Positions 1 to 46,247 of a stretch of 64,000 nucleotides of DNA are shown in pieces. The translations under genes were made by a program, and so were the position numbers. The first letter of the stretch is position 1. The number at the start of each line of letters is the position of its first letter. Source of the stretch: an uncultured Erysipelotrichaceae bacterium (lineage in GTDB: Bacteria > Bacillota_I > Bacilli_A > Erysipelotrichales > Erysipelotrichaceae); assembly GCA_947569705.1 (NCBI GenBank), contig CANOSP010000011.1, forward strand, positions 485 through 64,484, read 5' to 3'. Under the pieces are notes generated by a model. The model ran no database searches, was not told the origin of the DNA, and saw only the letters and a program-made list of their open reading frames with translations.

Positions 1-3000
1 TCCGGTTCATCTCCTTCATCAAATACCATTGTATCATATTGGAAATCTCCATCCACATTTTTATCAGGCTTCCATTCAGTGATTTCTTTAATGTTTTCAT
101 CTGCTTTTCCGTCTCCATCGGTATCCACATTGACATCCGGTTTACCGTCACCGTCACTGTCGATGCTTATATCAGGAATACCATCACCATTACTGTCAAT
201 ATTGATGTCCGGCACATTATCACCGTCTAAATCTATATTGATATCCGGTCTGCCGTCTTCATCTGAATCAATGTTAATAGATGGTTTTATTTCTTTTCCG
301 ACCGAATCATAAGTGAAATTAATTTGTTTATAATCCTTGATCGGTTTCCATGAATGCATTATAGCGATATTCGTCATTGGTTTTTGAGCATCTTTAGAAA
401 TATTGATATGAGGTTTAAAATCACCTTGATTATCAATATTGATATTCGGAATTCCATCATCGTCAGTATCCACATTAATCACTGCTTTTACACTTGTGCC
501 TGTGCAGTATTCCTCAGGGAATCCGTTATCAATATCTTGTTTCACACACTTGGTTGGTTTCCAATCCGTTTTCTTTAGAATCACTAAGTTAAGATCAGGT
601 TTACCATCATGATCGGTGTCGATGTTCAACTCAGGCTTCCCATCCCCGTTACTATCAATATTTAAGTCGGGGATACCATCACCGTCACGATCTCCGTTAA
701 TCACAATCCATTTACTTTCATCGTTTGTATCTTTCCACTTAATGTTTAAATCAGGACAACCGTCACCATCAGGATCATTGAAATCAGGTTTGCCGTCACC
801 ATCCACATCGACATCAATTTTCTTCAGTTCTAGTTCATGACAGCTTTCGGTATTTGTATTACCTGCATTGTCCGTGGCAATAACACAAACTTTATATTTG
901 CCTGTTGTTTCACTGATGGTAATGCTTGCCTTTTCTTTAGTGACACTTAATTTGCCCTCTTTCATCAGTTCTTCACCTGAGCGAGCAACGGTATCCAGCT
1001 TATATACCTTATAGCTGATTTCCTTTGTGCCGCTGACTTTTAGATTATCTTTCGCATCACTTGTGGTAATCTCAAATGCCGTTCCCGGTTTAAAGAAGAT
1101 GCCGCCGCTGATTTTATTAATAATATCCTGTAACTTATTATTCGTATCCTTTGCCTTAATACCTTTTACTTTTGGCGCAGTTTTATCGATCTTGACGAGT
1201 TCTTCTTTTTCCTTAGTGATCGCTCCGCTTTCCTTCTTCATCCAAAAGCTTTGATTTGTTTCGCCTTCTTTGGATACTGTGACTTCATTCGGTTTCCATG
1301 TGCTTTGATCCAGTGACAAGTTGATATATTCGATATGATCGCTGATGATATTTACATCTTGATTCGTCCACTTGCCTGCATAGGCTGTATTGTTTCCGTC
1401 ATTGATTTCTAAATGATACCAATCATCTTCAATCACATCTTCATTCACTATCAATGTTCCGTCTTTATATTTAAAAGTGTAATTCGGATAAGCTCTGTTT
1501 AAGGCGGTTGCGTCTCCCTTGATCGCATATCCCCCTGCTTCACTGCTTGCTTTTGCGGTAGTGCTTAGCTTTATATCATTCTCTTGAATAATATCCTGCG
1601 TTCCGTTCCATGAGACTAATTTAGATCTAAAATCTTGATAGGTCAGAACAGGATTTGCTTCACCTTTTAATCTGTCCTTATTATCAACGATAATTTCAAT
1701 ACTTTTCGGCAGCACTTGTACACTGACGAGTTTACTCAATGGTTTCTCTGAATCGGCAGTTCGCGTTACTTTGATGTTGATGCTGACATTGCCGCTTGCC
1801 TTTAATGCATCAAACTCCGCACTGTTTCCGTTAATCGTTGGGTTCGAAATATATGTGGTATTATCTACTTCAAACTGATACTGCACATTCGTACTGCTTG
1901 AATCATCCTGAAGACTGCTGATAGTGAAGTGATCTCCGTAGATAATTCTTCCCATATTCGTTACCGCCAGTTCACTTTCTTTTGAACCCAGTATGTGTAA
2001 AGTTCCGTCTGCCTCTGCTTTCTCATAATTGCGGTTTCCTTGTTTTAATACATGAAGCTGTATATCCTTGCCTTCTTCTTCCGAATAGCTGTAATGGATT
2101 GTTTTTCCGTCATTCGTATATGCGATATTATTATCAACACTTGTATCAACAGAGATATAATACTTCATATCCGGAACACTTGCTCCGCCCTCATTGCTTG
2201 AAATATCCTGTTCTAAAATAATCGGATCTACGGAACCGTCACCATTTGCCACATAGGTGACTTCTTTGAAGGAGATCGTTTGTTGTGCCTTTGTAATATT
2301 GATCGGCAATTCAATTATTTTATCACTGAAATTGCCGCTTGGATCATGACTTACCGCTTCGACAATCACTCTGCCGATTTGACTCGGAGTCAGTGTCGCG
2401 TTCAGTACAGTCACCGATCCATTCGCATCGACTGCTATTACATCGGTAGGACTTCCCGCTTTTAAACGATACGTTACACTGCTTCCGGTCGGATTTCCTG
2501 CCGTATATAATTGAAAACTCTTGCCTTTCGCATATACTTCACTGTATGCCGCATAAGCATCACCCGTTTTAGTTAATTCATTTCCTGCTTCATCCGTATA
2601 GATGAAATTTTGCGCTCCGGCTGTAACTGTGAATTCCAGTTCTGCGATCGCATTTGCTTGTCCGCTGATTCCTTGCTTTTCGGCAACGATGATTGTTGTT
2701 CCTACTGAATGAATCGTTACTGCGCCGGTACTTTCATTTACTTCTATGATTCCGGTTGAACCACCCTTAATGCGGTACTTCACCGGGTTCGGATTGGTGC
2801 TTCCCTTTACCGTCGCATATACCTTTACGCCTGTATCGGTTAAAGACACACTCTTTTTCGTAATCATATTCACTGCCGCACTTGTTTCATAGAAATACAG
2901 CGGTTCCGCATCAGCTTCCTCTACCTTTACCGTTACCTCTAAATCCTTAGAACTCCAATGATCAGATACAGTTACTGTAAAATGATATTCCCCTACCGAT

Positions 3001-5180
3001 AACTTGCCTTTGGTGGTTATATCACCCGTACTTGCATTCACCGCAAAGAAATTGGCATTTCCTCCGGGTTTCAATCCATAAGTATACTCATAATTACTGC
3101 CGCCGATTGTCGTAGGAGTACCGGGCATACCGGTGATTTTAGCAACCTTACCGTTCATTTGAACATTTGCCTGATTAGCGGTAAAGGTCGGAATCGTATT
3201 ATCCTTAGAACCACTCGCCGGATTTACGACACCGTTTACCTCTTTATAAATAATAATTTCTTTCTTTGTCGTTGCCGGGAGATAGTTATCATTACCGCTG
3301 CTCGGATCATCAGCAGCTGTCGCGCTGATTTCTACCTTACCGAAGTCGCCGTTTCCCTTGTAAGTAATTCTGCCCGTATCAGCATCTATATCAATTAAGC
3401 CAAAATCACCGCCGGTCACCTCATAAGTTATTTTAGGACCCTTTGGATTTGCCGTCGCTGTTTCGCTCCACGCTGTTCCTGCTTCAGCGATTGATTTTGT
3501 CGTTTGTGCTTGATCATCAAAACTTACCGTCAAGTTTGTTTTCGCTACAACAAGTGTAGTGCATACCTTAGAATCAGATGTTTCCGGAACAGGATCTCCG
3601 TACATATCCACCGCAGACACACAAAACTTATGATTTCCTGCTTTTAAGCTGCCGTTGACAACATCAGGTCCGTTACTTTTGATTTTAACATTCAATGATG
3701 TACCGGTAGAAGCACCGCTGCTGTTTAAACCGTCAATTTCAAAGTTTTGATAAGTATTATCACCGTTTGATTCTACTGTATAAGTAAGCGGCATTAAGCC
3801 TTGTCGATTCACGATAATGGTACCTATTGTCTGCCCTGCATTAACATTCTTGCTGAACTCATATTCCTTTCCGCTGCTCGCACCACTTTGCGGCTGCTTG
3901 GTATAAGTCAATTTATGAGATTCTATAATCTCTAACGGCATAATGTTAGAAATCGCAGAGCTTTCCACAGGCAGTTGTGAAGAAGCTTCATATTCTTCAT
4001 TGATAACAGCTAATTGATACTTTCCGACAGCCACTCCTGTGAGATCTAACGAATATTCATTCAATCCGCTTTTCGTCAAATCACCTAACTTATAATACTT
4101 TATCTCTGTGGCAGCTTCATTGTATAAAAGAATGGATAATCTTGTATTAGTTCCTGTATTTGCATCAACCGATAAAGTAATTGTACTGTCTTTCACTACC
4201 TTTTGTGTTGTCTGTGCTTTATATTTGATATTATTCAAACTTGCCGTTAAATTAGAAACAATTCTTAATTTATTAGGATTCAGTTCATTTTTTAAATTCA
4301 AATTCACCGTATCAACTTCATAGCTATGCCAATTACCGTCTGTATAAGAAGTGTTAGCCGCAAAATTAATTTTAGTACGATCGATTGTTGCGAAAGGTCT
4401 CAGACCTAATGTATTAATAGTAGCCTGATTTTGCGGCCAACGCTTTGCCGCAATACTGTCTATCATATTTGTAACAGAATTTAAAACCTCACCGGTATCT
4501 AACACGGTCATGTTCCCTCTGTCAGCATTGCCGACAGAATTTCCGATATTCACTTGTCGTATATTGAAATAACCATTTTTCGTAGAGTCATCAGCGGAAT
4601 TTGGAAATCTTCCCGCACCGTCCAGCCAATAGCCAAAATCATTTTGATTCGTATCTTTATAGGCACGATCATTGGTAGTTAAGCCGAGTGTACCGCCGTT
4701 CATGACAGCACCGACGGTCGGTAAAAACGGAGCTAAATTCAAAATAGGAGTTTCTTTTGAAGTAAGTTGAATTTTAGCAACTTCTTCCTTAAGCGGTGTA
4801 ACAGGACAATAAGGGATATAATAAATATTTTTATTAAAATACTTCAAGCAATATTTTTCACGCATTGCCGGATCTGTTTGAATGGTCGTTGATATTTTAT
4901 TAGGGTTATTACTTTCGTCATCCTCTTTTGATAAAATCGCCATATTAGTAATCGGCTTACTGCTCATAATCACATAATCATCTGTGTCTTTACCAATATC
5001 CCATATGATTTCATTACCGTTATATTCACCCAGGACTATTTTTTGCCCGCTTTGAAGATTAAAGGACGGTGCAGACTGTGCATGTAAAGTAGCCACCACT
5101 CCGATATTATTTACATACATATATGTTATCAATACAGTGCCTAATAAGAACAAAGAGGTCGCTAATATCTTTTTCCACAT
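1..5180 (-). CDS. Giant surface/adhesin-like protein, paralog 1 (runs off the left edge; absent from the ORF track)
   Basis: Manual translation from ATG 5180 (RBS AAAGGA): MWKKILATSLFLLGTVLITYMYVNN... signal/TM segment, DUF6273-like head (LGEYNGNEIIWDIG...YWL...GLRPFATID), Ig/cadherin-like and MBG-like stalk, DxDGDG repeats. The frame at position 3 (..DGDFQYDTMVFDEGDEP) matches the 5180 start and the C-terminal region of 7320-13457. Not every codon was checked. Confidence 0.85.
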   Translation of the reverse strand, partial: MWKKILATSLFLLGTVLITYMYVNNIGVVATLHAQSAPSFNLQSGQKIVLGEYNGNEIIWDIGKDTDDYVIMSSKPITNMAILSKEDDESNNPNKISTTIQTDPAMREKYCLKYFNKNIYYIPYCPVTPLKEEVAKIQLTSKETPILNLAPFLPTVGAVMNGGTLGLTTNDRAYKDTNQNDFGYWLDGAGRFPNSADDSTKNGYFNIRQVNIGNSVGNADRGNMTVLDTGEVLNSVTNMIDSIAAKRWPQNQATINTLGLRPFATIDRTKINFAANTSYTDGNWHSYEVDTVNLNLKNELNPNKLRIVSNLTASLNNIKYKAQTTQKVVKDSTITLSVDANTGTNTRLSILLYNEAATEIKYYKLGDLTKSGLNEYSLDLTGVAVGKYQLAVINEEYEASSQLPVESSAISNIMPLEIIESHKLTYTKQPQSGASSGKEYEFSKNVNAGQTIGTIIVNRQGLMPLTYTVESNGDNTYQNFEIDGLNSSGASTGTSLNVKIKSNGPDVVNGSLKAGNHKFCVSAVDMYGDPVPETSDSKVCTTLVVAKTNLTVSFDDQAQTTKSIAEAGTAWSETATANPKGPKITYEVTGGDFGLIDIDADTGRITYKGNGDFGKVEISATAADDPSSGNDNYLPATTKKEIIIYKEVNGVVNPASGSKDNTIPTFTANQANVQMNGKVAKITGMPGTPTTIGGSNYEYTYGLKPGGNANFFAVNASTGDITTKGKLSVGEYHFTVTVSDHWSSKDLEVTVKVEEADAEPLYFYETSAAVNMITKKSVSLTDTGVKVYATVKGSTNPNPVKYRIKGGSTGIIEVNESTGAVTIHSVGTTIIVAEKQGISGQANAIAELEFTVTAGAQNFIYTDEAGNELTKTGDAYAAYSEVYAKGKSFQLYTAGNPTGSSVTYRLKAGSPTDVIAVDANGSVTVLNATLTPSQIGRVIVEAVSHDPSGNFSDKIIELPINITKAQQTISFKEVTYVANGDGSVDPIILEQDISSNEGGASVPDMKYYISVDTSVDNNIAYTNDGKTIHYSYSEEEGKDIQLHVLKQGNRNYEKAEADGTLHILGSKESELAVTNMGRIIYGDHFTISSLQDDSSSTNVQYQFEVDNTTYISNPTINGNSAEFDALKASGNVSINIKVTRTADSEKPLSKLVSVQVLPKSIEIIVDNKDRLKGEANPVLTYQDFRSKLVSWNGTQDIIQENDIKLSTTAKASSEAGGYAIKGDATALNRAYPNYTFKYKDGTLIVNEDVIEDDWYHLEINDGNNTAYAGKWTNQDVNIISDHIEYINLSLDQSTWKPNEVTVSKEGETNQSFWMKKESGAITKEKEELVKIDKTAPKVKGIKAKDTNNKLQDIINKISGGIFFKPGTAFEITTSDAKDNLKVSGTKEISYKVYKLDTVARSGEELMKEGKLSVTKEKASITISETTGKYKVCVIATDNAGNTNTESCHELELKKIDVDVDGDGKPDFNDPDGDGCPDLNIKWKDTNDESKWIVINGDRDGDGIPDLNIDSNGDGKPELNIDTDHDGKPDLNLVILKKTDWKPTKCVKQDIDNGFPEEYCTGTSVKAVINVDTDDDGIPNINIDNQGDFKPHINISKDAQKPMTNIAIMHSWKPIKDYKQINFTYDSVGKEIKPSINIDSDEDGRPDINIDLDGDNVPDINIDSNGDGIPDISIDSDGDGKPDVNVDTDGDGKADENIKEITEWKPDKNVDGDFQYDTMVFDEGDEP

Positions 5181-5445
5181 ATCACTCATATCCTTTCTAT
5201 CAAATATTTATATAAATAAAGTTAAAGTATAAGCAGCTTCCCATTTGCTGCTTTACAATTTCTGTATATACAAAACATAAAACCCATAAAATCATAAACA
5301 AAAAAAGCGGTGTTATACGGTTATAACATATACTCTTCCACCCAAACGACGATATCAAATTCAAAAAGGATTAAAAATATACAAAAAAAATATCAATTTT
5401 TTAGAACATCAAAATCAACCCAAATAAAACTGTTTTTCGGCCGCA

Positions 5446-6492
5446 TCAAAGCTGATTGAAACTGTTCTCTACAAGCTCTTTAAAAGGCATATTCCAATAA
5501 TAAGTATAAAGCAGTTCATAATACGTTCCACCGTATTGCTTTAAGGAATCATGAACCGCAAAAAGTTGGTTCAGCTGTTCTTGACTCAGCTTTTTAATGT
5601 CATCTTCACAATGCGCATAATTTAATAAAATTTCATAAGCTTCTCTCGGAGTATGAATCGGTATATTCTCAAAATATAAATCTGAAAATAATGCTTTACC
5701 GTCAATACGTTCTTGATCAGAACGATAATTCTCAGTTAATTGATAACCTCCGTACAAAGTACCTCCGCACATTAATACAATCATTGCGATTTTCACATAG
5801 GGCAGTGCATAAGAAAACATATGCAATGGATAAGAAAACCACGTTTGATAAGAAACCGGCGCCAGTGAGGCACATGCCGTTACTAACAGTGCTTCTATAG
5901 AAGATGCTCTGAAAGACAGTTTAATATCATTTTCCTTTTCGTATTGCTCAATCGCTTCTTTGAGATATTTTTTGCCGTAAAGCAATCGACTTTTCACTGT
6001 TCCCAAAGGGCAATGAAGCAATTCGGAAATTTCTTTATTATTTAACTGAACAAAGAAATATAAAATCAGCACTTCTCGATACTGCGGTTTTAACTCTAAC
6101 AAGCATCTTTGAAGAATCTGCATATCCGTAGAATAATGATTCATATATTCAGGACAATATTCCATTCGATCTTCTGTTTCATTGCTTAATATTTCAAGCT
6201 GAGAATCACTCATTTGCTGATCTCTTTTTCTTCTTAGCATTGTTATGGTTTTAGAATGTGCAATTTTTCCGATCCAAGCTTTAAACTGCGTCGGATCTTT
6301 TAACGCTGATATTGATCGCTGTACCTGTACAAAAGTTTCCTGTACTATTTCTTCCGCATCCGCATGATTTTTTGTCAGTTGAAAAGCAATATAATAAACC
6401 AGACGACGATAACGGTTGTATAGTTCATTAAAAGCTGTTTCATCATTTTCCTGTAAACGAAGGACCAGTTGCGTCAGTGTTGATTTTTTCAT
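5446..6492 (-). CDS. ECF-type RNA polymerase sigma factor with C-terminal TM segment and extra domain
   Basis: Region 2 (AFNELYNRY..DAEEIVQETFVQV..FKAWI..IA) and region 4 (YREVLILYFF..LNNKEISELLHCPLGTVKSRL). Hydrophobic IAMIVLMCGGTLYGGY follows. Start set at ATG 6492 after AAAGGA (ORF track start 6507). Confidence 0.9.
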   Translation of the reverse strand: MKKSTLTQLVLRLQENDETAFNELYNRYRRLVYYIAFQLTKNHADAEEIVQETFVQVQRSISALKDPTQFKAWIGKIAHSKTITMLRRKRDQQMSDSQLEILSNETEDRMEYCPEYMNHYSTDMQILQRCLLELKPQYREVLILYFFVQLNNKEISELLHCPLGTVKSRLLYGKKYLKEAIEQYEKENDIKLSFRASSIEALLVTACASLAPVSYQTWFSYPLHMFSYALPYVKIAMIVLMCGGTLYGGYQLTENYRSDQERIDGKALFSDLYFENIPIHTPREAYEILLNYAHCEDDIKKLSQEQLNQLFAVHDSLKQYGGTYYELLYTYYWNMPFKELVENSFNQL

Positions 6493-6650
6493 ACAAATTC
6501 CTTTCATAACAATTTACTTTATTTTAAAATAACATTTTTATCATTTTTTGTAAATATGTAAATTCTGTAAGAATAATAGAAATCCTCTGAAAAACTGTAA
6601 AACAAATAAAAAAATTTGCTTTTTACAAAACAACATGTGATTTTAAATTT

Positions 6651-6676
6651 AAAAAAAACAGAGATAGTTCCCTGTT
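6651..6676 (-). terminator. Intrinsic terminator after 6688-7200
   Basis: AACAGGGA-ACTA-TCTCTGTT followed by a T run on the minus strand. Confidence 0.65.
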
Positions 6677-6687
6677 AAAATGTAAAA

Positions 6688-7200
6688 TTAATCCGCGATA
6701 TTTTTTATTTTTGTATCATGACGAAGACTCGTCATCATATGAGTAATACCGATATATGCCGTTGCGTCGATTATGATTGCTTTTTTACTTGCTTTGGGAT
6801 GGATTTTCCACAGTGCGACAACCTTACGATTTCCTTCCTTAAAAAGAAAGTGTTTCTTAACCTCTACGATCGCATTAATATCATCATAAGCAAGCCGTTT
6901 TTTACGCATATTTAAGAATGTGTAATCGATTAAACCGTATTCGTAAAATTCAATTTTGTCAAGCAAAGTAGATAATTGAAATAAAGCAAGAAACGCAAAA
7001 ACAAGAAGCAGTATAACTGCAATCACATCCTCTGATACTTCAATTGATAAAAAGATGGCAACGATAAAGATTATCATAACAATTGTAAAAATTATCGGCA
7101 TCATTTTTTTACTTTCCCCAACCATCTTTAAGGAACCGAAATCTTGATCTGTTCCGCTGATTCCATCTTGTTGAGTAGACAGTTTTCTTTTATATTCCAT
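6688..7200 (-). CDS. Hypothetical membrane protein (2 TM plus soluble C-terminal domain)
   Basis: 170 aa ORF with RBS GAGGT and two hydrophobic stretches. Confidence 0.7.
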   Translation of the reverse strand: MEYKRKLSTQQDGISGTDQDFGSLKMVGESKKMMPIIFTIVMIIFIVAIFLSIEVSEDVIAVILLLVFAFLALFQLSTLLDKIEFYEYGLIDYTFLNMRKKRLAYDDINAIVEVKKHFLFKEGNRKVVALWKIHPKASKKAIIIDATAYIGITHMMTSLRHDTKIKNIAD

Positions 7201-7292
7201 AAGTTAAACCTCATTTCTCTAATAGTTTATCATTTTTCAGCGTAAGTATCAATGATGAGACTGAATGATGTTAAAACATTTACAAACAAGCG

Positions 7293-7317
7293 AAAAAGAG
7301 CGGAGCTTAATCCGCCC
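7293..7317 (-). terminator. Intrinsic terminator after surface protein 2
   Basis: GGGCGGA-TTAAGC-TCCGCTC-TTTTT just after the stop codon. Confidence 0.7.
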
Positions 7318-7319
7318 TG

Positions 7320-10300
7320 TTATTCAGATAAATGACTTGTTTTTCTTTTGTATAACAGATAGAAAGTGATTCCAAACGAGAATAAACACAGACCGCTGTA
7401 CATCATTAAATTAGTTGCGTCACCTGTATTTGCTCCGCCCATGCTTGTAACGGGATTATACATGCCTTTTACGGATGTATCGAGTTTATCCGCTTGAGGT
7501 TCATCGTTCTTAGGCACAGTAGGATCATTTGGTTCTTCCGGTTCTTCAGGGTTTTCAGGATCTTCCGGTTCATTAGGTTCACTGAAATCCATAATATCAT
7601 ACGGATAATCTCCTTGAATGGTTTTGTTTGGTTTCCACTCTGTTATTTCTTGGATATTATCTTCCGGGACACCGTCACCGTCCTTGTCAATATTAATATC
7701 CGCAACGCCGTCTCCGTCACTATCGATATTAGTGTTAGGAATTCCGTCGTCATCCGTATCAATATTAAGATCAGGGATACCATCTCCGTCTATATCTACA
7801 TTCACATCAGGAAAGCCGTTGCCGTCAGTGTCAATATTCCAAACCGGCTTGATTTTTTCCGTATCGTAGAGGAATTTATTTGATGTATAATCCTGATTTG
7901 GTTTCCATGTATCATGTTCCGCTACATTTAACATAAAGCCGACTTTTTGGATATTAATATCCGGCTTCATATCGCCGTCGGTATCGATATCAATATCAGG
8001 AATTCTATCCCCATCGGTGTCAATGTTGATTAATGGTTTTACACTTGTACCGGTACAGTATTCTTCTAAGATTCCGTTATCAACATCTTGTTTCACACAC
8101 TTGGTCGGTTTCCAATCTGATTTTTTAAGAATCACTAAATTAAGATCAGGTTTGCCGTCATTGTCTGTATCAATATTCAAGTCAGGTTTCCCATCCCCGT
8201 CACTGTCAATATTCAAGTCAGGGATACCATCATAATCTCTGTCACCGTTAATCACAGTCCATTTCTTTGTATCATTTGGATCTTTCCACTTGATATTTAG
8301 ATCAGGACATCCATCACCATCCGGATCATTGAAATCAGGCTTACCGTCACCGTCCACATCGACATCGATCTTTTTGATGTTTAGGTCTGAGCACTTTTCT
8401 TCGGATTCATTCGTCGCATTGTCTATCGTTGTTGCACACACTCGATAGTTTCCGATATTGTTAATCTTGAAGCTCAGTATCTTATTCGTTCCCGGTTTTG
8501 CACTCTTTTCTTCTATCGGTGTTGTGCTTGTCATCATGCCTTGCGCATCTAATTCATAGACCTGATAGCTGACTTCCTTGACTTCACTCACCTTTACCGT
8601 TGCTCTTGTGTTTGGCTGAGGATCTTCTGTTTTGATCTCTACCTGCACTCCCGGTTTAAAGTAATGTCCTAAGGTGATTTCATTTAAGATATTGGATACT
8701 CCGTCTTGATTTACAGGATAGCCTGTGATACTTACAATCTTCGGTTTCATCATATCTATCTTTACATGATCTTGAAGCTTTTCACTGATCGCTCCTTTAT
8801 GCAAACTTGTACCGCTCGGATCGATTCTGAAGTAGATGTCTGTTTCATTGTCATCTTCTTTGTTTATTGTAAAGCGCTGCTTGTTCGCATTCGTAAATGT
8901 CACTGTATCTGATATTTGGTCATACACTCCTGCACTTGCCGTGGTGTTCGCTGTATCAATCACTACATCGACTAGATAGTTATGCCACTTATCTGATGTT
9001 ACTGTATTTCCGTCCGGATCCTCTAAATGATACCAACTGTCACTTGGTTCATCTTGTTTGATTGTCAAGCTTCCTGATTCAAGCTTGATTTCATAATGCT
9101 TCGTATTTCCGTTCAATTCATTTGTGCCATAGCTTCCGCTGATGTCATACTTTCCTGTTGTTTTTGTATCTTTAATTGCTTTGCCGTTTTGTTTTGCACT
9201 TGTATTCTTAGGAATCGGAAAATCATTCATACTGTCAGTAAATGCAAATGCATTCGTACTAGGCTGTTTGAATTTGTATGTCGGGAAGGCTTCTCCCACA
9301 TAGATTTCTTCATCCTCATAGGTTAAGGTGATTGGTTTCTTTTTTACAATGATAATCTGTTCTCCATAGTCTCCGCCGATCGCATTACAATCATCCACTG
9401 CCGGATCAAATGCATCCTTTGTCTGACATACCTTTATGATTACCTGTCCGCTTCCGATTGCCGTTATCGGCTGACTTGTTTTCGTATTCACCGCTGCCGT
9501 ATTAACATCAAGTATACTTGTATCATCGACATAGAAATACACAGGTACTCCATTCTTATAGCCACTTGTTATTTTTGCCTCTATGTTTGTATCTCCATAG
9601 GTCATGCCGGGGGCATACAGATTTAAACTTGTCGGCGGTCGATCTGTTGTTTCCAATATCGTTGTGGCTTGTTTACTGTTATAGTTTCGATCCTCAGGGG
9701 ATGTGGCTGTTAAGGTTGCGGTACCTGCTTTCCCTAAGGTTTTGAAGCTTTGATCTTGTCCGCTGATCGGTGGTTGTGCTTCGGCAATCGTATTATCACT
9801 GCTTGATAACAATACATCTCCCTGACTCAGCTTGCCGTTATAGGTTGGCTGGATCGTTGCCGGTGTTTTCCCAATCGTCCATTTCGGTGTATTCACAAAG
9901 GCAAAGTCCTTTTGTTCTGCTTTTTCAATGACGATCTTCGCATAGATGCATTGTGCCGCATAACCGTCATGTGCATTCATACATGCTTTTACATATGCAT
10001 CGCCGCCGTTTCCGTAATCTCCGTCCGGATCACTGGCATTGATGATATTGAAATGATTCAAGTTATTATGATCAATCACATCTTCATCTACACTGATTCC
10101 TGTTGATTCAGCGATCGTTACTTCGCTGTATGTGGAATCAATATTCGTCTTTACATCGATTGTTCCGTTTTGTTCATACGTCTTTTTATACACCGGTACA
10201 TTCTTTGTTCCATACGTATCGCTGAGTGCCAACTTCGTTCCTGCGATAGGATCAATAAAGTAGAAATCTGCCTGTGCATCCACTATCACAATAATCACAT

Positions 10301-13300
10301 CAACTGTTCTTGTGTTTTTATTATTATCAGTCACATCAACTTGAATATAATACTTATTCCCTGTACCGTGATTGCTTAAATCATTTGCGGTAATGTCCTG
10401 ATTCAGTGTGATATATCCGGTTGAGGTTACGGTAAAGAGGCTTGCGTCAGCATTTTGATTCCCGTTGTTCGTACTTTTCTTATAAGTGCTTCCCGAAACA
10501 CTGACTTGTGCCATTGCGGTTCCTTGTTTTGCCGTTCCGCCGTTTGGATCGGCACTTGTATTCAGTGCTTTCTTTAAAGTCGCATCAGGTGTATAAGTGA
10601 CTCCTGTGGTACCGCCGTTTTCAATACTTCCTGTCACCTCAATATTGCCCGGCACATACACTTGAATCACTCTGCCTGTTTGCGTTGTGGCTGTTTCATA
10701 GTTATCATCACCGTTTAAGGTTCCGGTTAATGTCGCACTTCCCGCATCACTCGCGTTGCTTGTCGGACATACCTGCCCTTGTGCGTTGATTGTAAAAGGT
10801 GCATTCAAACTCGTATTGCTTGAAGTATATTGAATCGTTTCGCCGCTTTTTGAATACGTTGAAGTAACACTTGCCGGTACACTCACACAGGCACCGCCCA
10901 CCGCTAGCTTTAACATACTTGTATCAGGAAATGCGATTGTCTGCGGATATTTATTAACATTTACAATCAAATCAGTATCTACTCCTGTTGTACCGTAAAT
11001 ACCACCGGTAATATGTGCTTTGATTTTCACATTGTTTAAAGTATTGGAATCACTTGCCTTCTTCACTGTCGCCTGGACAGTACTTGAACCGGAAATACTG
11101 ATTACATCATTGGGATCCGGATTCAATGAATAGGTAATCACGGTATTCGTTAATGCCCCGTTCGTTGTTTCGATCAGCTTAGTATTAAAGGTACCGCCGT
11201 TGTTTGGCTCTCCGCTTGGATCATACGTTATCGTATACGTATTGCCCGGGATAATACTTCCTGATTTTTGCGGTTCTTCCCAACCGACTCCTGATAGAGA
11301 TGCCGCTTGAATCGTAATCGTTTTCGTAGCTGTTGTTGTTTGTTTGTTCGGTGAAGTACTATCCTTTACTTCAACCACAATCGTATAGCTACCCGGTGTT
11401 AAACCGTTCGCACCGACACTTGTATTAACATACACATTGCCGTTAGAATCAACGTGGAAGGACCCATTATTACCCTGACCGCTCGGAAGCGTATAGGTAA
11501 ACGGTGCCGTACCGCCGCTCACATCAATATGAGCGATCTTATTTGCGGAAGTATAACTTGTCGGTGGCTTAGCCGCACTGCTTCCCGCAGTAATATTAGT
11601 TTTATCCTCCACATAGTTCGCTGTAATACCTAATTGGAATGTGATTGTTTTAGTTGTAGTAGCTGCTTCATAATTATCTGTCGCATCAACCTTTGCCTGA
11701 ATCACAACACTTCCCGTCGCATTCGCCGCAAATACAATATCGGCATTATCACCTGCATTTGATGAAGTAAACGGCAAACCGCTTGATATGATGTTTCCGT
11801 TTCCTGACACAAAGGAATATTCAATCTTAACATCATTATTAGCTAAATCATTATTTGTATGAGTCGCATGTTCACTGTGGGTTGTTGTACCGGTGGTGCT
11901 GCCTGAAACATAAGTCGTTCCTTTATCATCTTGATCAAAAATAATTGTCGGTTGCGTCTTGGCAACATCAAATGTGGTACAAACCCTTGAGTTACTCGTT
12001 GCAGGATCCGGGTCTTTGTACGCATCCTTTGCGGCAATACAAAATTTATAAGTCCCTGCTTTTAACCCGCCGTTCACTAAATCAGGCGCATTGCTTTTTA
12101 TTTTTATATCCAGTGACGTACTGCCTGATGAATCATTTGCATCCAAACCGTCAATCTCAAAATTTTGATGCGTATTGTCACCGTTCGACTCTATTGTATA
12201 AGTAAGAGGCATAACACCTTTCGGACTTACATCGATCATCCCGACTTTTTGTCCTGCATTCACATTCTTACTGAATTCATAATCCCCTGCCGTCGCTCCG
12301 CTTTGCGGATCCTTCGTATAAGCTAATTTATGCGGCTCTACAATCTCGATTCCCATCATTTGCGAAATCGGTGAGGACTTTGCGGCTCTGCCGGTAGATG
12401 CATCAAAATGCTCATTTGCGACAGCTATTTTATATTTCCCTACCGGTATTCCCGTTAAATCAAACTCTTTGGTATTTAAGGCTTTATAATAAAGCAGCTG
12501 ATTTCCCGCATCGTTAAACACAAAAACGGATAATGTATCATTGGCAGTTGCATCTAATTGAATTTTGGCATTTTTAACTACTTGTTTATCTGCAATAGAA
12601 TTCCCTTTATATTGCATATCACTAAAAGTAACTTGATAGCTTGGATCCGCATATCTGATTTTCAGTACTCCGCTTCGCGGATTACTTTTTAATACATTTT
12701 TTCCGATCGTATGATCCAATGCATAAAGTATATTAGGACTTTTTAAATGCGAAAAAACCGAAAGTTCAAGATTTTGCCACTCTTTCCCTATATACGCCCA
12801 TTCATAAGAAATATACGCCGGATAAGCTGTCGCATTGGTTGACGAAGACGAATACGCTTGCACAACCGAACTGTCCCTTCTGAAATATGCACTTTGCCAT
12901 GCTTTGTTATGCTTAATATATGCCTTCTCCGATATAATACATACCTCAGGCAAATCATCCAATCCAAGACTTCCCGAAGTAAAATCATCGATTCCGGGAA
13001 CATAACCATGTTGTAAATTACCCACTTTACCTGAAACTGCCAATACTTCCGTACTCTCAAATTCATTACCCGATAAACTAGCTGTATAAGCGTCATCATA
13101 GGATTTCGCCGTAAGGTATCCTTGCGAATGTGATTTTCCTGCCACATCGGTATAAAAATCACACATATCTATTTCGCCGCCTTTTCTCGGTACCGTATTA
13201 TTCGTATTACTGTTACAGTTTTGTACTGTTCCTATATAATGATGCATAGCATAATACCCGGTATTGTTTTTACTAACGGTCCAAACCGATTCTTCACCGC

Positions 13301-13457
13301 TCTCATTTGTTCCGACAATCACTTGTTCGCCCGGCTCTAAAACCTCTAAATTTCCGGCAGCAGACAGATTATTGTTATATTGAAGCACTGTAAAAGATGC
13401 GGAGAAAATTCCGATAGTCAGAAACAATAATAAGATCATTTTATTTCGCATATACAT
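7320..13457 (-). CDS. Giant cell-wall-anchored adhesin-like protein, paralog 2 (2045 aa)
   Basis: N-terminal signal/TM, variable head, Ig/cadherin-like repeats, MBG-like domain (KKKPITLTYED..ESGSLTI), many DxDGDGxPD Ca-binding-like repeats, EPxxPE linker, GANTGD + TM + basic tail sorting signal. Confidence 0.9.
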   Translation of the reverse strand: MYMRNKMILLLFLTIGIFSASFTVLQYNNNLSAAGNLEVLEPGEQVIVGTNESGEESVWTVSKNNTGYYAMHHYIGTVQNCNSNTNNTVPRKGGEIDMCDFYTDVAGKSHSQGYLTAKSYDDAYTASLSGNEFESTEVLAVSGKVGNLQHGYVPGIDDFTSGSLGLDDLPEVCIISEKAYIKHNKAWQSAYFRRDSSVVQAYSSSSTNATAYPAYISYEWAYIGKEWQNLELSVFSHLKSPNILYALDHTIGKNVLKSNPRSGVLKIRYADPSYQVTFSDMQYKGNSIADKQVVKNAKIQLDATANDTLSVFVFNDAGNQLLYYKALNTKEFDLTGIPVGKYKIAVANEHFDASTGRAAKSSPISQMMGIEIVEPHKLAYTKDPQSGATAGDYEFSKNVNAGQKVGMIDVSPKGVMPLTYTIESNGDNTHQNFEIDGLDANDSSGSTSLDIKIKSNAPDLVNGGLKAGTYKFCIAAKDAYKDPDPATSNSRVCTTFDVAKTQPTIIFDQDDKGTTYVSGSTTGTTTHSEHATHTNNDLANNDVKIEYSFVSGNGNIISSGLPFTSSNAGDNADIVFAANATGSVVIQAKVDATDNYEAATTTKTITFQLGITANYVEDKTNITAGSSAAKPPTSYTSANKIAHIDVSGGTAPFTYTLPSGQGNNGSFHVDSNGNVYVNTSVGANGLTPGSYTIVVEVKDSTSPNKQTTTATKTITIQAASLSGVGWEEPQKSGSIIPGNTYTITYDPSGEPNNGGTFNTKLIETTNGALTNTVITYSLNPDPNDVISISGSSTVQATVKKASDSNTLNNVKIKAHITGGIYGTTGVDTDLIVNVNKYPQTIAFPDTSMLKLAVGGACVSVPASVTSTYSKSGETIQYTSSNTSLNAPFTINAQGQVCPTSNASDAGSATLTGTLNGDDNYETATTQTGRVIQVYVPGNIEVTGSIENGGTTGVTYTPDATLKKALNTSADPNGGTAKQGTAMAQVSVSGSTYKKSTNNGNQNADASLFTVTSTGYITLNQDITANDLSNHGTGNKYYIQVDVTDNNKNTRTVDVIIVIVDAQADFYFIDPIAGTKLALSDTYGTKNVPVYKKTYEQNGTIDVKTNIDSTYSEVTIAESTGISVDEDVIDHNNLNHFNIINASDPDGDYGNGGDAYVKACMNAHDGYAAQCIYAKIVIEKAEQKDFAFVNTPKWTIGKTPATIQPTYNGKLSQGDVLLSSSDNTIAEAQPPISGQDQSFKTLGKAGTATLTATSPEDRNYNSKQATTILETTDRPPTSLNLYAPGMTYGDTNIEAKITSGYKNGVPVYFYVDDTSILDVNTAAVNTKTSQPITAIGSGQVIIKVCQTKDAFDPAVDDCNAIGGDYGEQIIIVKKKPITLTYEDEEIYVGEAFPTYKFKQPSTNAFAFTDSMNDFPIPKNTSAKQNGKAIKDTKTTGKYDISGSYGTNELNGNTKHYEIKLESGSLTIKQDEPSDSWYHLEDPDGNTVTSDKWHNYLVDVVIDTANTTASAGVYDQISDTVTFTNANKQRFTINKEDDNETDIYFRIDPSGTSLHKGAISEKLQDHVKIDMMKPKIVSITGYPVNQDGVSNILNEITLGHYFKPGVQVEIKTEDPQPNTRATVKVSEVKEVSYQVYELDAQGMMTSTTPIEEKSAKPGTNKILSFKINNIGNYRVCATTIDNATNESEEKCSDLNIKKIDVDVDGDGKPDFNDPDGDGCPDLNIKWKDPNDTKKWTVINGDRDYDGIPDLNIDSDGDGKPDLNIDTDNDGKPDLNLVILKKSDWKPTKCVKQDVDNGILEEYCTGTSVKPLINIDTDGDRIPDIDIDTDGDMKPDINIQKVGFMLNVAEHDTWKPNQDYTSNKFLYDTEKIKPVWNIDTDGNGFPDVNVDIDGDGIPDLNIDTDDDGIPNTNIDSDGDGVADINIDKDGDGVPEDNIQEITEWKPNKTIQGDYPYDIMDFSEPNEPEDPENPEEPEEPNDPTVPKNDEPQADKLDTSVKGMYNPVTSMGGANTGDATNLMMYSGLCLFSFGITFYLLYKRKTSHLSE

Positions 13458-13762
13458 CTTCCTTCCTCAAGTATGAAAAATCGGACTTTAGATACAGAAG
13501 CCCATATCAAAGAATCATAATCTATGGCTATTAACAGAAACATATATTTTAATATTTATAAGAAAAACAATGATATTAAAATATACCGCTAATACATATG
13601 AATGCCTTGGTATTTCCAAACCAACCAATTCGTACAAAGAAATCATTTCGATAAATAACCTCTTTTTGGGCGTATATGATTGAACATGTATATGAAAAAA
13701 CTGTTTTATTTACACATGATCCTTCAAATTTTCTCATTGTACAATACACGCAGGCTACACAC

Positions 13763-13792
13763 TAGACACACAAGGATCCGAAAACGTGCGCT
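13763..13792 (-). promoter_or_regulatory. Putative ECF sigma promoter upstream of surface protein 2
   Basis: Minus strand AGCGCACGTTTTC-GGATCCTTGTGT-GTCTA; 25/30 identical, with no gaps, to 14995-15024. Confidence 0.65.
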
Positions 13793-13878
13793 AAATATTA
13801 AAATATTTTCATTTATCAGTAAAAAACAAATGCGATGATATAAACTTTTATCAATATAAAATATGCAACAGAAAAGCT

Positions 13879-14871
13879 TCAGCGCTTTGCTTCCTCATAA
13901 GCCTGAATCCATCCGTCTTTATTTAACAGGTCGTAAAAGGGAGAATTATTTTGTCTCAGTTGTTTTACATACGGCAAAAGTTCATCTAACGCTGCTTGAT
14001 TCAACGCATTCAGTTCCTCAGAACAATGTGCCTTTTTTCTGATGATAAAATATGCATCTTGATCGGTGATCTCATGTCTGTATTCCTCATCTAAGACAAC
14101 ACCCTGATTCCATTGATAAAAAGAATATGTACTGACACCGAGAACTGCCGCAAAGCATAACGCCGCAATGCCGGATAACTGAATAGACGCACTGCGCTTA
14201 AAAAACGACAGTTTGCCTAAATTCCATTCGCAAGGCTTGGGGGCTTTACAATGAAAAGCATATAAAAGCAATAGTCCTGTAGGAAAACAGTAAAAAGATA
14301 GTTTTTCATGATGTTGAGATTCATATAAATGAATTTGCTTGCGCAATAACTGCTTACCGGTACGCAGTCTGCTCTTTACCGTTCCTTCCGGTATATCTAA
14401 AACTTTCGCAATCTCACTCATTTTAGCGTCATCATAATACTTTAAAATCAAGGTTTCGCGATAAATATACGGTATATTATCCAACAGCTTTAATACAATA
14501 TCCGCATTACTTTGCTTACGCACGATCACAGAAGGCAGTGAATCTTCACGATCATCGGCGATATCCAATGCCGCCAATGCATGTTCTTCCATATAAATTT
14601 CACGATTCTTACGAAACATATTCTTACAGCGATTGATTAAAATCTGCTTCATCCATACAATCACTACATCCGGATTCTTAAGATGAATAATATTTTGTTT
14701 GATATTAATAAAAGTATCCTGAACAACATCTTGTGCATCTGCTTCATTTTTTGTGAGCTTTAAAGCCATATAATAAAAGGCAGTATAAAAATCATGATAT
14801 AATTTCGCAAATGCTTCCTCATTACCGGTTTGAATTTCTCTGATAAGCTGCGGTAAATCTTCACGCTTCAT
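13879..14871 (-). CDS. ECF-type sigma factor with C-terminal TM segment and extra domain (paralog of 5446-6492)
   Basis: AFAKLYHDF..DAQDVVQDTF (region 2), YRETLILKYY..MSEIAKVLDIPEGTVKSRL (region 4), TM IAALCFAAVLGVSTYSFY. Start set at ATG 14871 after AAAGGAG (ORF track start 14895). Confidence 0.9.
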   Translation of the reverse strand: MKREDLPQLIREIQTGNEEAFAKLYHDFYTAFYYMALKLTKNEADAQDVVQDTFINIKQNIIHLKNPDVVIVWMKQILINRCKNMFRKNREIYMEEHALAALDIADDREDSLPSVIVRKQSNADIVLKLLDNIPYIYRETLILKYYDDAKMSEIAKVLDIPEGTVKSRLRTGKQLLRKQIHLYESQHHEKLSFYCFPTGLLLLYAFHCKAPKPCEWNLGKLSFFKRSASIQLSGIAALCFAAVLGVSTYSFYQWNQGVVLDEEYRHEITDQDAYFIIRKKAHCSEELNALNQAALDELLPYVKQLRQNNSPFYDLLNKDGWIQAYEEAKR

Positions 14872-14994
14872 GATTATTACTCCTTTATCTTTCATATATA
14901 TTAAATTATTACATAAACAAACATTTTTATCAATAAATTATCATAATATTTTTTAATTTGCATTTTCTTAAAATGATAAAAAGTGATCATTAAA

Positions 14995-15024
14995 TAGACA
15001 CATAAAGAATAGAAAACGTGCGCT
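14995..15024 (-). promoter_or_regulatory. Putative ECF autoregulatory promoter upstream of the sigma gene
   Basis: Minus strand AGCGCACGTTTTC-TATTCTTTATGT-GTCTA; same motif and spacing as 13763-13792. Confidence 0.65.
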
Positions 15025-15190
15025 GATTTGTAAACAAAATAATGCAAAATTTTGCGAAATAAGCTTTGTTTAGATTGATTAAATTGTCGTTCATTTCAGA
15101 AAAAAACACTTCATAAAAATAACAACAGTAAGATTCTCAGACTATCGTTTTTGTTAAAAACATGTTATACTAACATACAGGAAAAGGAAG

Positions 15191-16897
15191 ATGTATATGG
15201 AAAAAAACTGGATTAATGAAGCAATATTTTATCATATTTATCCGCTGGGATTTTGCGGGGCTCCTAAATATGCGCATGAACAAACAACATGCCAAAATCG
15301 CATAAAAAAACTCATTGATTGGATTCCTCATCTGCAGGAAATGAAAATCAATGCCTTATATTTAGGGCCGATATTCGCCTCTTATGAGCATGGATACGAT
15401 ACAAGTGATTATCGCTTAATCGATCCGCGTTTAGGCAGTAATGAGGACTTCATGGCTGTATGCGATGCACTTCATGAAGCAGGCATCAAGATTATTTTAG
15501 ACGGTGTATTCAATCATGTCGGAAGAACCTTTTGGGCATTTCAGGATGTACAGGAAAAAAGAGAAGGATCACAATATCGTGATTGGTTTCATAATATAAA
15601 TTTCAATAACCGCTCCCCTTATGATGATCCGTTTTCCTATGAGGCATGGGAAGGACACTACAACTTAGTGAAATTAAATCTGCGCAATGAGGCAACTGTT
15701 CAATATTTATTAGACAGCGTCGGTATGTGGATGGAGGCTTTTCATATTGACGGTTTGCGCTTGGATGCGGCTGACTGTATCGATAAACAATTCTTTCAGC
15801 GTTTAAAAGCTTATACAAAAGAGCGCAATGCTGATTTTTGGCTGATGGGCGAAATTATTCACGGAGACTATTCATTATGGGCTAATCCGGAATTGTTAGA
15901 TTCGGTCACAAACTATGAATGCTACAAAGGATTATATTCTGCGCATAATACAAAAAATTATTTTGAGATTGCATATTCCTTAAATCGTCAATTCGGTAAC
16001 GGCGGCATCTATAAGAATTTGAACCTCTATAACTTCGTGGATAATCATGATGTAAATCGTCTTGCCTCTACGCTTCAAAACAGCGCAGATCTTAAAAATG
16101 TTTATACGCTATTATACACGATGCCGGGTGTTGCCAGTATTTACTACGGCAGTGAATTCGCTATTGAAGGTAAAAAACAAAACGGCAGTGATGATATGCT
16201 GAGGCCGGAATTGTCACTTACCCAATTTTCAAAGGATCATCCGCTGTATCTCCACCTTTGTAAACTCGGTGAAATCCGCACTGCTTACAAGCCGCTGCAA
16301 TACGGTAATTATGAGCAGGTAACAGTACGCAATGAACAATTTATCTTCAAGCGCACTTTGAATGAAGAGACGCTGTTTATCGCGCTCAATGTGGCAGATC
16401 AAGCAATTACGCTTCCGTTTGCGAAAGGAGAACAGGCTTATGATCTGTTCAAAGACAAGATGCTGCAGGCAGAGAACGGTGAACTGAGCATTACCTTGAA
16501 TCCTCATGAAGCGACAATCTTGTATATAGGAACGAATTACCCTACGGTGAAAAACGCAACAAAGAAAAAAACAGTTAAAGCAAAAGCTGATACATTCTCT
16601 GTCAAAAATAAAGAACAAAAACCAAAAGCTGAAAAACAGGACATGAAACCTACCGATGTCAATCATACCGCAAAAGAAATCTCAAAGCAGATACAACCCG
16701 GGGTATATCGTCACTTTAAAGGTAATCAATATGCAGTATTATATATCGCAAAGAACAGTGAAACATCAGAAGCGATGGTCGTCTATCGCCAGTTATACGG
16801 AGATAGTGAGGTTTGGGTACGCCCGTTGTCAATGTTCACGGAAACAGTGCAGTTTAACGGCGAAGCAATTCCGCGATTCACTTATCTTCATAAATAA
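15191..16897 (+). CDS. GH13 alpha-amylase/neopullulanase-like enzyme fused to a C-terminal DUF1653-like domain
   Basis: DGVFNH, GLRLDAAD, GEIIH and FVDNHD GH13 motifs. The tail GVYRHFKGNQY..VVYRQLYG..WVRPLSMF is the DUF1653 signature. Confidence 0.85.
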   Translation: MYMEKNWINEAIFYHIYPLGFCGAPKYAHEQTTCQNRIKKLIDWIPHLQEMKINALYLGPIFASYEHGYDTSDYRLIDPRLGSNEDFMAVCDALHEAGIKIILDGVFNHVGRTFWAFQDVQEKREGSQYRDWFHNINFNNRSPYDDPFSYEAWEGHYNLVKLNLRNEATVQYLLDSVGMWMEAFHIDGLRLDAADCIDKQFFQRLKAYTKERNADFWLMGEIIHGDYSLWANPELLDSVTNYECYKGLYSAHNTKNYFEIAYSLNRQFGNGGIYKNLNLYNFVDNHDVNRLASTLQNSADLKNVYTLLYTMPGVASIYYGSEFAIEGKKQNGSDDMLRPELSLTQFSKDHPLYLHLCKLGEIRTAYKPLQYGNYEQVTVRNEQFIFKRTLNEETLFIALNVADQAITLPFAKGEQAYDLFKDKMLQAENGELSITLNPHEATILYIGTNYPTVKNATKKKTVKAKADTFSVKNKEQKPKAEKQDMKPTDVNHTAKEISKQIQPGVYRHFKGNQYAVLYIAKNSETSEAMVVYRQLYGDSEVWVRPLSMFTETVQFNGEAIPRFTYLHK

Positions 16898-41853: not shown

Positions 41854-42085
41854 TCAGCTTCCAATGCAGGATATAGACAATACATGTATGTTATTGTTTA
41901 AAGCATAGTTTTCTTTCGTATTACATAACAGGCAAGAAAAGCCAATCGAATACCTTGATTTTTCTAACTGTTTAAAAGCCTTTACACTATCTAAATGAAA
42001 ACTAACAAATCTATATACCTCGGCAGATTTTCCGATTTGTATTTAATGCTTCTTTAATTTTAGTATTTATTGTTCTTTCAATCAC
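41854..42085 (-). pseudogene. Internally deleted remnant of a possible AAA/DUF4143-type ATPase
   Basis: RBS AGGTG + GTG gives MIERTINTKIKEALNT..; another frame gives a C-terminal-like ..DSVKAFKQLEKS..CLLCNTKENYALNNNIHVLSISCIGS*. The family call is from recollection only. Confidence 0.4.
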
Positions 42086-42204
42086 TTTTATCACCTGCTT
42101 CTACTATACCATGATTTTATGCGATTTAAAGTACAAACTTAAATTCGCATAAAAAAATGCAAGTCATATTTGTAACCTACATCTCTATTCACTGATTTGA
42201 TTTT

Positions 42205-42272
42205 TTAACTTTTTTGCAACAGTACAATGGATTCCACATGGCTTGTTACTTTTAAATGAAGCAATTACAAGT
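42205..42272 (-). repeat. rlmD 3'-end copy R4 (HVESIVLLQKS*, 42205-42240) with conserved upstream arm
   Basis: CTTGTAATTGCTTCATTTAAAAGTAACAAGC|CATGTGGAATCCATTGTACTGTTGCAAAAAAGTTAA. Confidence 0.85.
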
Positions 42273-42318
42273 ATAGTTAAAACAAATGCGCTCATCAATT
42301 TTTTTATTAGAAATTCAG

Positions 42319-43545: not shown

Positions 43546-43560
43546 TAGACATAGATAGCC

Positions 43561-46230: not shown

Positions 46231-46247
46231 ATGACCTTTGTCCGAAC

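Follow-up and report, generated by a model that had tools for sequence, protein, structure and literature searches.

The extracytoplasmic function (ECF) sigma factors carry fused extensions in 19 of 157 ECF groups (PMC7826278). Fusions to transmembrane segments are predicted for the groups ECF48, ECF52, ECF53 and ECF115, for which proteolytic activation has been proposed, and have been shown for IutY (PMC8999054; PMC7826278). The IutY protein of Pseudomonas putida (ECF243) is a sigma/anti-sigma hybrid that is released by Prc and then by RseP, and its truncated form is constitutively active (PMC8999054). The present analysis concerns two genes for ECF sigma factors with a fused membrane-spanning tail, sigma1 and sigma2, each followed by the gene of a giant surface protein, giant1 and giant2, in a stretch of 64,000 nucleotides (nt) from an uncultured Erysipelotrichaceae bacterium (contig CANOSP010000011.1 of assembly GCA_947569705.1, positions 485 to 64,484). 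This whole stretch is called the window, and both modules lie on its minus strand. On balance we lean towards the view that each module works on its own to switch one surface protein, by means of a sigma factor that is freed by proteolysis. ECF sigma factors with a fused membrane sensor are known already, and no new principle is involved. The new points are the outer domain, the apparent lack of an anti-sigma domain, the strict association with a giant, and a 25-fold, genus-wide expansion with lineage-specific promoters. The literature search found no publication describing this sigma-giant system, and public annotation calls these proteins merely 'RNA polymerase sigma factor'.

Like IutY, these proteins join an ECF sigma at the N-terminus to a single membrane span and a C-terminal part outside the cytoplasm (a predicted topology here), all in one chain, and they are not accompanied by a gene for a separate anti-sigma factor. 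When compared with a sigma/anti-sigma hybrid, they have the fused transmembrane and outer part but no recognisable anti-sigma domain. IutY has a FecR-type anti-sigma part and serves Gram-negative TonB-dependent iron signalling, whereas the present family has no detectable anti-sigma domain, a new helical outer domain of ~75 residues, a Firmicute host, one giant as its presumed target and 25 copies. The actinobacterial ECF52 (SCO4117), ECF48 and ECF53 and the Firmicute ECF115 are similar in having a C-terminal fusion with one or two transmembrane helices and an outer domain. Their extensions reach up to 400 residues and have a zinc-finger anti-sigma motif and carbohydrate-binding or proline-rich parts; they have not been described with a giant pairing or a 25-fold expansion, and it is by their descriptions that they are set apart here.

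Many paralogous sigma systems are also found in cellulolytic Clostridia, where each SigI/RsgI pair combines an extracellular sensor with a promoter variant of its own and governs genes for large extracellular proteins. The likeness lies in the Firmicute host, the many paralogous sigma systems, the promoter variant of each and the large extracellular products. However, SigI does not belong to the ECF sigmas, the sensor role falls to a second protein, RsgI, which bears carbohydrate-binding modules of known kind, and the pairs number about eight as against 25 here. Likewise, ECF240 of the Bacteroidetes polysaccharide utilisation loci shows a large expansion within genomes, each copy being tied to a neighbouring surface-protein locus (PMC7826278). 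This group shares with the present one the expansion of a single group and the one surface-protein locus beside each copy, but it differs in its separate FecR-like anti-sigma factors, its SusC-like outer-membrane transducers and its nutrient-uptake targets. ToxR, CadC and TcpP similarly unite, within a single polypeptide, a DNA-targeting domain in the cytoplasm with one transmembrane helix and a sensor domain outside; they are winged-helix activators that act while membrane-bound, and not sigma factors.

A sequence-only reading of the window had described a tandem arrangement in which a sigma gene is followed by a giant adhesin gene, and the open reading frames (ORFs) are present in this order twice. 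The spacer is 421 nt between sigma1 and giant1 and 265 nt between sigma2 and giant2, which runs past the window edge. The spacers of the modules hold no credible small ORF, in agreement with the earlier statement that there is no separate anti-sigma gene. The shorter starts chosen in that reading are the better ones, as a ribosome-binding site of the GAAAGGA type precedes the second ATG. The sigma2 start at 6492 lies 7 nt past GAAAGGA, an arrangement kept in the orthologues; the sigma1 start at 14871 is preceded by AAAGGTG, and the giant2 start at 5180 lies 10 nt past GAAAGGA. An alignment of the two sigmas spans both proteins entirely, extension included (31% identity, E 6e-44). The tandem arrangement is kept in genome G002, where both orthologues stand ~7.5 kb apart on one contig.

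The identity of the two proteins as ECF sigma factors, as first proposed, is borne out by Pfam, NCBIfam and fold matches alike. Both match Pfam Sigma70_r2 and Sigma70_r4_2 above the cut-off and reach 73 and 97 bits with the ECF superfamily model TIGR02937, against a cut-off of 42.9. They consist of the sigma2 and sigma4 domains only, without sigma3 or sigma1.1, as is characteristic of ECF (group 4) sigma-70 factors, and their best fold matches are the ECF sigmas SigW, SigE, AlgU and SigH. None of the named Firmicute ECF families (SigW, SigY, SigV, SigM, SigX, TIGR02954) claims them, the best scores being 105-108 bits against equivalog cut-offs of 188-209. The sigma cores are only ~37% identical between paralogues and the median terminal branch is ~1 substitution per site, which marks the lineages as old; the sigma4 recognition helix GTVKSRL is nearly invariant. 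Three distant and longer relatives (P0268, P0269, P0065) have only the sigma core in common with the family.

The fused tail was described by alignments of the 25 paralogues of the genome, of 40 database relatives and finally of 225 family members. It is an extension of ~150 residues of constant layout. A short motif (Y-E-x5-K-L-x-F, with F in 94%) follows the last sigma4 helix; then come a linker of 35-50 residues to the membrane (20% mean identity), a transmembrane segment rich in small residues (18%), an acidic or polar, variable juxtamembrane stretch (10%), and an outer domain of 60-75 residues. The outer domain has a mean pairwise identity of 36% and is more conserved than the three parts before it (10-20%); its conserved positions, counted from the ATG at 6507, are F274, A290, Y291, L294, A298, Y319, L322, Y329, L333 and W338. 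With a Kyte-Doolittle threshold of 1.5 or more over 19 residues, all 25 paralogues have one hydrophobic segment, one marginal second peak excepted, with a tail of 74-112 residues after it. Since the net charge is more positive before this segment than after it in the 25 paralogues, the sigma domains are predicted to lie inside and the tail outside (N-in/C-out). AlphaFold2 models the tail domain with confidence as a beta-hairpin and a five-helix bundle (predicted local distance difference test 83, predicted template-modelling score 0.72). Alignments, hydropathy and model together agree with the earlier description of linker, one transmembrane helix and helical domain. A Foldseek comparison of the outer-domain fold with the PDB gave no usable match (best E 1.3), and a Pfam search with residues 185-353 at E up to 1 gave nothing besides noise.

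The sequence-only reading had further suggested that a conserved Ala-His-Cys of the outer domain binds metal or senses redox and so controls the sigma. The tripeptide occurs in both window proteins, within the motifs NYAHCEDD and KKAHCSEE that had been quoted for them, and in many close relatives. Among the 225 members, however, the alanine is kept in 83%, the histidine in 33% and the cysteine in 52%, and 75 are devoid of cysteines outside the membrane. A single cysteine with one histidine would make a weak site, and the residues that are conserved belong to an aromatic and aliphatic core. As a family-wide mechanism the proposal is largely refuted by this poor conservation of histidine and cysteine, and we hold it to be highly improbable.

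A phmmer search of all ORFs in the 2.13-Mb assembly found 25 extended sigmas (325-383 residues as called) and just two short ECF-like proteins besides, while Firmicutes have a mean of 7.1 ECF sigmas per genome (PMC7826278). A large ORF with a signal peptide comes next on the same strand behind 24 of the 25; the remaining one (C15:940) is followed by a giant-family remnant of 137 residues near the contig end. Ten of the giants behind these 24 are complete (nine of 1696-2667 residues and one mini version of 323), and 14 are cut at contig ends; altogether 31 of the assembly's 114 contig ends interrupt a giant gene. The sigmas and giant-family ORFs make up at least 7.2% of the assembly. The pairing of sigma and giant is far beyond chance. 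Hence the tandem pair first noticed was real but understated, as its two modules belong to about 25 within an expansion that is genus-wide.

The sigma2 tail has 10-20 matches in each of eight other genomes of the same genus (8/8); in 32 genomes that represent other genera within the family and order it has none, and a profile of the outer domain found none in 299 other genomes of the class (179 genera). Among the genomes searched, the outer domain appears to be confined to one genus. The public contigs that hold full-length relatives belong to uncultured Erysipelotrichaceae, to the mouse-gut isolates A81, C59_1 and B98_23_ET_BP, and to 'bacterium c-19'. One relative, on a contig of 2.8 kb, was assigned to Melainabacteria, probably through a mistake in binning. 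When 1.84 billion representative proteins were searched with a profile, at least 145 distinct full-length clusters at 50% identity were obtained, which makes the family a very diverse one. The order of the genes is likewise maintained elsewhere in the genus, a large signal-peptide ORF following the sigma at 25 of 30 loci from other genomes; at most of the remaining five the contig stops a short way past the sigma gene.

The giants begin with MWKK or MKK followed by a hydrophobic stretch, and their architecture consists of a signal peptide, a variable N-terminal part of ~280 residues, Ig-like, cadherin, PKD-like and MBG_2 repeats, and an Asp-rich C-terminal third with DxDxDG. Giant1 and giant2 are 42-43% identical in their middle and C-terminal parts, and their N-terminal ~280 residues do not align. 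Recent gene conversion between the two was considered and rejected, as just one stretch of 300 nt at 78% identity was found. All complete giants end in VKGxYNPxTSxGGA(N/L/I/M/D)TGD, a hydrophobic segment and a K/R tail. A signal of the xNTGD type also ends other surface proteins of the genome, including a GH20 enzyme in the window; genome-wide, the sorting signals read (P/A/V)-x-T-G-D (PNTGD, ANTGD, PKTGD) and not LPXTG. With the signal peptide, the sorting motif followed by hydrophobic segment and basic tail, and two sortase genes in the genome, the giants have the features of sortase-anchored proteins. They are probably covalently wall-anchored fibres with a variable tip, the anchoring chemistry being one that we infer for a motif different from LPXTG. 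A comparison of the giants with PDB sequences gave no match, and the label 'adhesin' is a fair guess from their domain content (cadherin, PKD-like, MBG_2 and Asp-rich repeats).

The outer domain might monitor the giant of its own module or the sorting pathway, for example by sensing an unanchored giant or its C-terminal stalk, and so provide feedback on a costly 200-kDa protein. Such a role would be in keeping with the hydrophobic core conserved in the outer domains of all paralogues, and with the C-terminal stalk and sorting signal (VKGxYNPxTSxGGAxTGD) that the giants share. It would also agree with Mantel tests in which outer-domain similarity does not follow the similarity of the giant N-termini (r 0.07, p 0.26). 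A weak correlation was found between sigma core and giant N-terminus (r 0.29, p 0.004); since modules duplicate as a whole, co-divergence of sigma and giant cannot show an interaction. Against such monitoring, the outer domains differ much from one another (36% mean identity), and the complete giants (n=9-10) are too few for an analysis of co-variation with the C-terminal stalk. We consider product monitoring decidedly unlikely.

The switch that we favour, with one sigma for each surface protein, leads to the promoters of the giants. A Gibbs sampler run on 24 spacers first recovered the ribosome-binding site with the MWKK start; after these were masked, it found an A/T-rich stretch ending in TGAAC(C/T)TTT. 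When the spacers were anchored on this motif, a -10-like xGTCT appeared 17 nt downstream, and the arrangement GAAC-17 nt-xGTCT is found in all 24, with GAAC itself as the -35 element in 20 and TC at the -10 element in ~17. This shape is classic for ECF promoters, for example those of SigW, SigM and SigX in Bacillus subtilis. In every module the predicted promoter lies 20-240 nt past the sigma stop codon. A strict regular expression matches in 9 of the 24 spacers against ~0.14 expected. A position weight matrix (PWM) at 18 bits or more has 10 matches in spacers and one elsewhere in 4.26 Mb (both strands), a test that is circular in that the matrix was trained on the same spacers. With leave-one-out scoring the same site was returned in 22 of 24 spacers, and in 20 of 24 it ranked in the top 10% of A/T-rich background windows. 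The giant1 promoter scores 22.2 bits with the PWM and 18.9 bits when left out.

Comparison between species gives, as far as sequence can show it, the strongest support for a regulatory link. In the orthologue sets of sigma1 and sigma2 from four species, nothing in the spacer but the promoter forms a conserved island, and even the deviant -35 elements are kept (AATCC in the sigma2 set, GCGCAC in the sigma1 set). The giant2 promoter block is fully conserved in four species, and the same variant occurs in L005-L007. At 28 loci of other genomes, an average of 15.2 of the 19 core promoter positions agree with the promoter that belongs to the closest paralogue in the present genome, as against 9.5 for the other paralogues, and matches of 19/19 are seen at only 77-80% sigma identity. 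Within the genome, the promoter variants track the sigma clades. These comparisons indicate that every sigma lineage has a promoter variant of its own, which stays with it and is maintained by purifying selection; this supports the idea of one sigma per surface protein. The earlier suggestion that each sigma is linked to its adjacent giant is upheld to the extent that every spacer has an ECF-type promoter whose lineage-specific bases are kept across species.

The same promoters could also be read as one regulon with many sensors, in which the 25 sigmas are largely redundant and any member activates many or all giants through the common GAAC...GTC. The shared -35 and -10 bases counted above and the nearly invariant sigma4 helix fit with this. 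However, the flanking and variant promoter positions are kept within lineages and differ between them, and would drift if the sigmas were fully redundant; the sigma cores, moreover, have diverged to ~37% identity. Redundancy of this kind is quite improbable.

Invertible promoters were also considered as a feature of the family and rejected, as a search of the 24 spacers for inverted repeats found only two isolated cases. In one, a perfect 15-nt inverted repeat of A and T only (13544-13558 / 13792-13806) encloses the giant1 promoter together with 233 nt of leader; it resembles an invertible switch, and may be due to chance in A/T-rich DNA. The other, of 13 nt, lies in C32.

According to the mechanism that we favour, the sigma gene would be transcribed from its own sigma-A-type promoter, and the product would insert in the membrane with sigma2 and sigma4 in the cytoplasm and the small helical domain facing the cell wall. 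The tethered sigma would be kept from free RNA polymerase. A signal acting on the outer domain would then lead to cleavage in the juxtamembrane and transmembrane region, the site-2 cut being made by a protease of the RasP/RseP type. The freed sigma would take RNA polymerase to the ECF-type promoter 20-240 nt past its own stop codon, and this promoter would drive the adjacent giant, a sortase-anchored protein. With its own -35/-10 variant for each lineage, the ~25 modules would be at least partly insulated, and the cell could select which giants to display. By analogy, release by proteolysis is plausible. It is favoured because of the probably exposed, variable juxtamembrane stretch, the transmembrane helix rich in small residues, the gene for an M50 site-2 protease (RasP/RseP type, contig C6:23602-24588) in the genome, and the precedent of IutY.

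The sigma might instead act while tethered, without proteolysis. Membrane insertion during transcription would hold the locus near the membrane, RNA polymerase would be loaded in cis, and specificity would come partly from proximity, in a manner comparable to the membrane-integrated ToxR and CadC. The promoter that always lies 20-240 nt past the sigma stop would suit this arrangement, as would the unconserved and probably flexible linker of 35-50 residues between sigma4 and the membrane and the failure to find an anti-sigma domain; with GAAC as the -35 element of most paralogues, sequence alone may not insulate the modules. On the other hand, the strongly conserved, lineage-specific promoter variants argue for recognition by sequence and not by proximity only, and the conserved, folded outer domain would be left without an obvious role. 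To our knowledge, no sigma factor acts while membrane-bound. Action in the tethered state is in our view unlikely.

Several observations weigh against release by proteolysis from an otherwise inactive state and against strict one-to-one control. A Pfam search at E up to 1 found no anti-sigma domain (ASD, zf-HC2, FecR) between sigma4 and the membrane; with none detectable and a linker only ~20% conserved, tethering alone would have to inhibit the sigma. Neither a site-1 protease nor a cleavage motif was identified. The promoters are predictions, their leave-one-out scores are individually modest (20/24 at p<=0.1), and the PWM consists largely of A/T-rich context. Some cross-talk between modules is likely, as most share the GAAC -35. 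About half a dozen giant-family genes have neither a sigma nor an ECF-type promoter, two of them being second genes behind another giant. Finally, read-through into the giants is possible, as neither window module has a predicted terminator between its sigma gene and the ECF-type promoter.

The sigma genes themselves have no detectable ECF-type promoter, with one weak match upstream of the 25, and autoregulation of the modules was rejected on this ground. This lack of detectable autoregulation is unusual among ECF systems. What the regions upstream of these genes share most strongly is the terminator that ends the gene before. The sigma-A-like promoter of sigma2 sits just past such a terminator, and its block is fully conserved in the orthologous loci of three other species while the sequence just upstream is not. 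That of sigma1 is a consensus match only, and the match counts are not above those of shuffles. The units are bounded by terminators, one 3' of giant1 and a second 3' of P0003. The latter gene (6688-7200, minus strand) stands between the two units and encodes 170 residues with two predicted transmembrane helices and a weak similarity to DUF6560/DUF6585; three other species keep it 5' of their sigma2 orthologue. P0003 was considered as a hidden anti-sigma factor and rejected, as it is a singleton that adjoins no other module; without paralogues in the genome, it is not a part of the module.

A second layer of control may exist in the leaders of the giant mRNAs. A terminator-like hairpin with a T-run occurs in 7 of the 24 modules, against 1.2 +/- 1.1 in shuffles, 35-130 nt into the 5' leader, and may act as an attenuator. 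Besides that of giant2, these hairpins are on contigs C24, C43, C49, C4, C15 and C33 of the same genome (G000); the sigma2 orthologues have a hairpin and T-run at the same place with a different sequence. A search of positions 1-16000 of the window against Rfam at E up to 1 gave nothing. Other recurring leader elements were also seen, such as a motif TAGGCTTTTAGTATCATA...TATTGTTTATA in ~6 modules (G000 C8:60052, C15:8959, C38, C43, C48 and C49), a TTGTAGACA box directly before the ribosome-binding site in several G000 modules, and a longer hairpin-bearing leader block common to C4:94646, C26 and C38. The positions of the features of the two modules are collected in Table 1.

Table 1. Features of the two sigma-giant modules, in window coordinates; promoters, terminators and membrane segments are predictions
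Feature	Position	Strand	Evidence and remarks
giant2, surface protein, 1801 residues in the contig	1..5180	-	cut at window edge; cadherin, PKD-like, MBG_2 and Asp-rich repeats, GGAITGD
Terminator-like hairpin and T-run in giant2 leader	5300..5338	-	RNAfold -7.8 kcal/mol
giant2 ECF-type promoter	5347..5390	-	T-rich upstream stretch; -35 AATCC 5372-5368; -10 CGTCG 5351-5347
sigma2, ECF sigma with fused membrane-spanning tail	5446..6492	-	ORF open to 6507; domain matches, hydropathy, structure model
sigma2 extracellular domain	~5449-5655	-	
sigma2 transmembrane helix	~5734-5808	-	
sigma-A-like promoter of sigma2	6526..6554	-	TTTACA-17 nt-TG-TATTTT
Intrinsic terminator 3' of giant1	7297..7318	-	8-bp stem with 5 G-C pairs, T-run
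giant1, secreted surface protein, 2045 residues	7320..13457	-	signal peptide, variable N-terminal region, Ig/cadherin-like and Asp-rich DxDxDG repeats, sorting signal GGANTGD, transmembrane segment, basic tail
giant1 ECF-type promoter	13763..13801	-	A/T-rich upstream stretch; -35 GCAC 13789-13786; -10 GTCTA 13767-13763
sigma1, ECF sigma with fused membrane-spanning tail	13879..14871	-	ORF open to 14895; Pfam r2 and r4_2, TIGR02937, hydropathy
sigma1 extracellular domain	~13882-14088	-	C-domain profile A2 match, E 7e-21
sigma1 transmembrane helix	~14134-14190	-	hydropathy
sigma-A-like promoter of sigma1	14905..14933	-	TTGATA-17 nt-TG-AATAAT; best consensus match of the region, 10/12 positions, with TG

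Elsewhere in the window, an orphan giant, the third family member here, begins at 62968 on the plus strand and runs through position 64000 on to the contig end; it matches the middle part of giant1 with E 8e-49 and has neither an upstream sigma gene nor an ECF-type promoter. At least five further orphans lie elsewhere in the genome. The gene stands in divergent orientation to that of the GH20 enzyme (57582-62774, minus strand), a secreted glycoside hydrolase of 1730 residues with GH20, two F5/8 type C, laminin-G-like and FIVAR domains and a sorting signal of the IKNTGT type, which looks like a wall-anchored mucin- or glycan-degrading enzyme. A stretch of low GC content (30-34%) at 42000-47300 holds genes for a Fic/SoFic-like protein (42319-43371), a RhuM-Fic fusion (43561-44499) and a RhuM-family protein (46248-47267), and may be an acquired island. 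At 39529-40894 (minus strand), a gene of the sodium:neurotransmitter symporter family appears to be split into an ORF of 363 residues and an overlapping one of 137 residues, which may reflect a frameshift or a sequencing error.

For the genus as a whole, we tentatively propose that ~25-30 giants are controlled by mutually insulated, single-polypeptide transmembrane sigmas, each of which would sense the surface through the new domain and activate only its own neighbour. If this were true, surface variation would be driven by sigma factors and not by DNA rearrangement, and ~25 orthogonal sigma/promoter pairs would operate in one genome of 2 Mb. The lineage-specific promoters form a ready-made test set for sigma/promoter orthogonality. 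Among the fused ECF sigmas only IutY has been studied at the bench, and the present family could show whether tethering alone gates a sigma factor. With 25 ECF-type sigmas in 2.1 Mb and at least 7% of the genome given to the modules, this mouse-gut commensal would be making a major investment in a selectable surface, and such a surface matters for colonisation, for attachment to mucus and for the way in which antibodies of the host recognise the bacterium.

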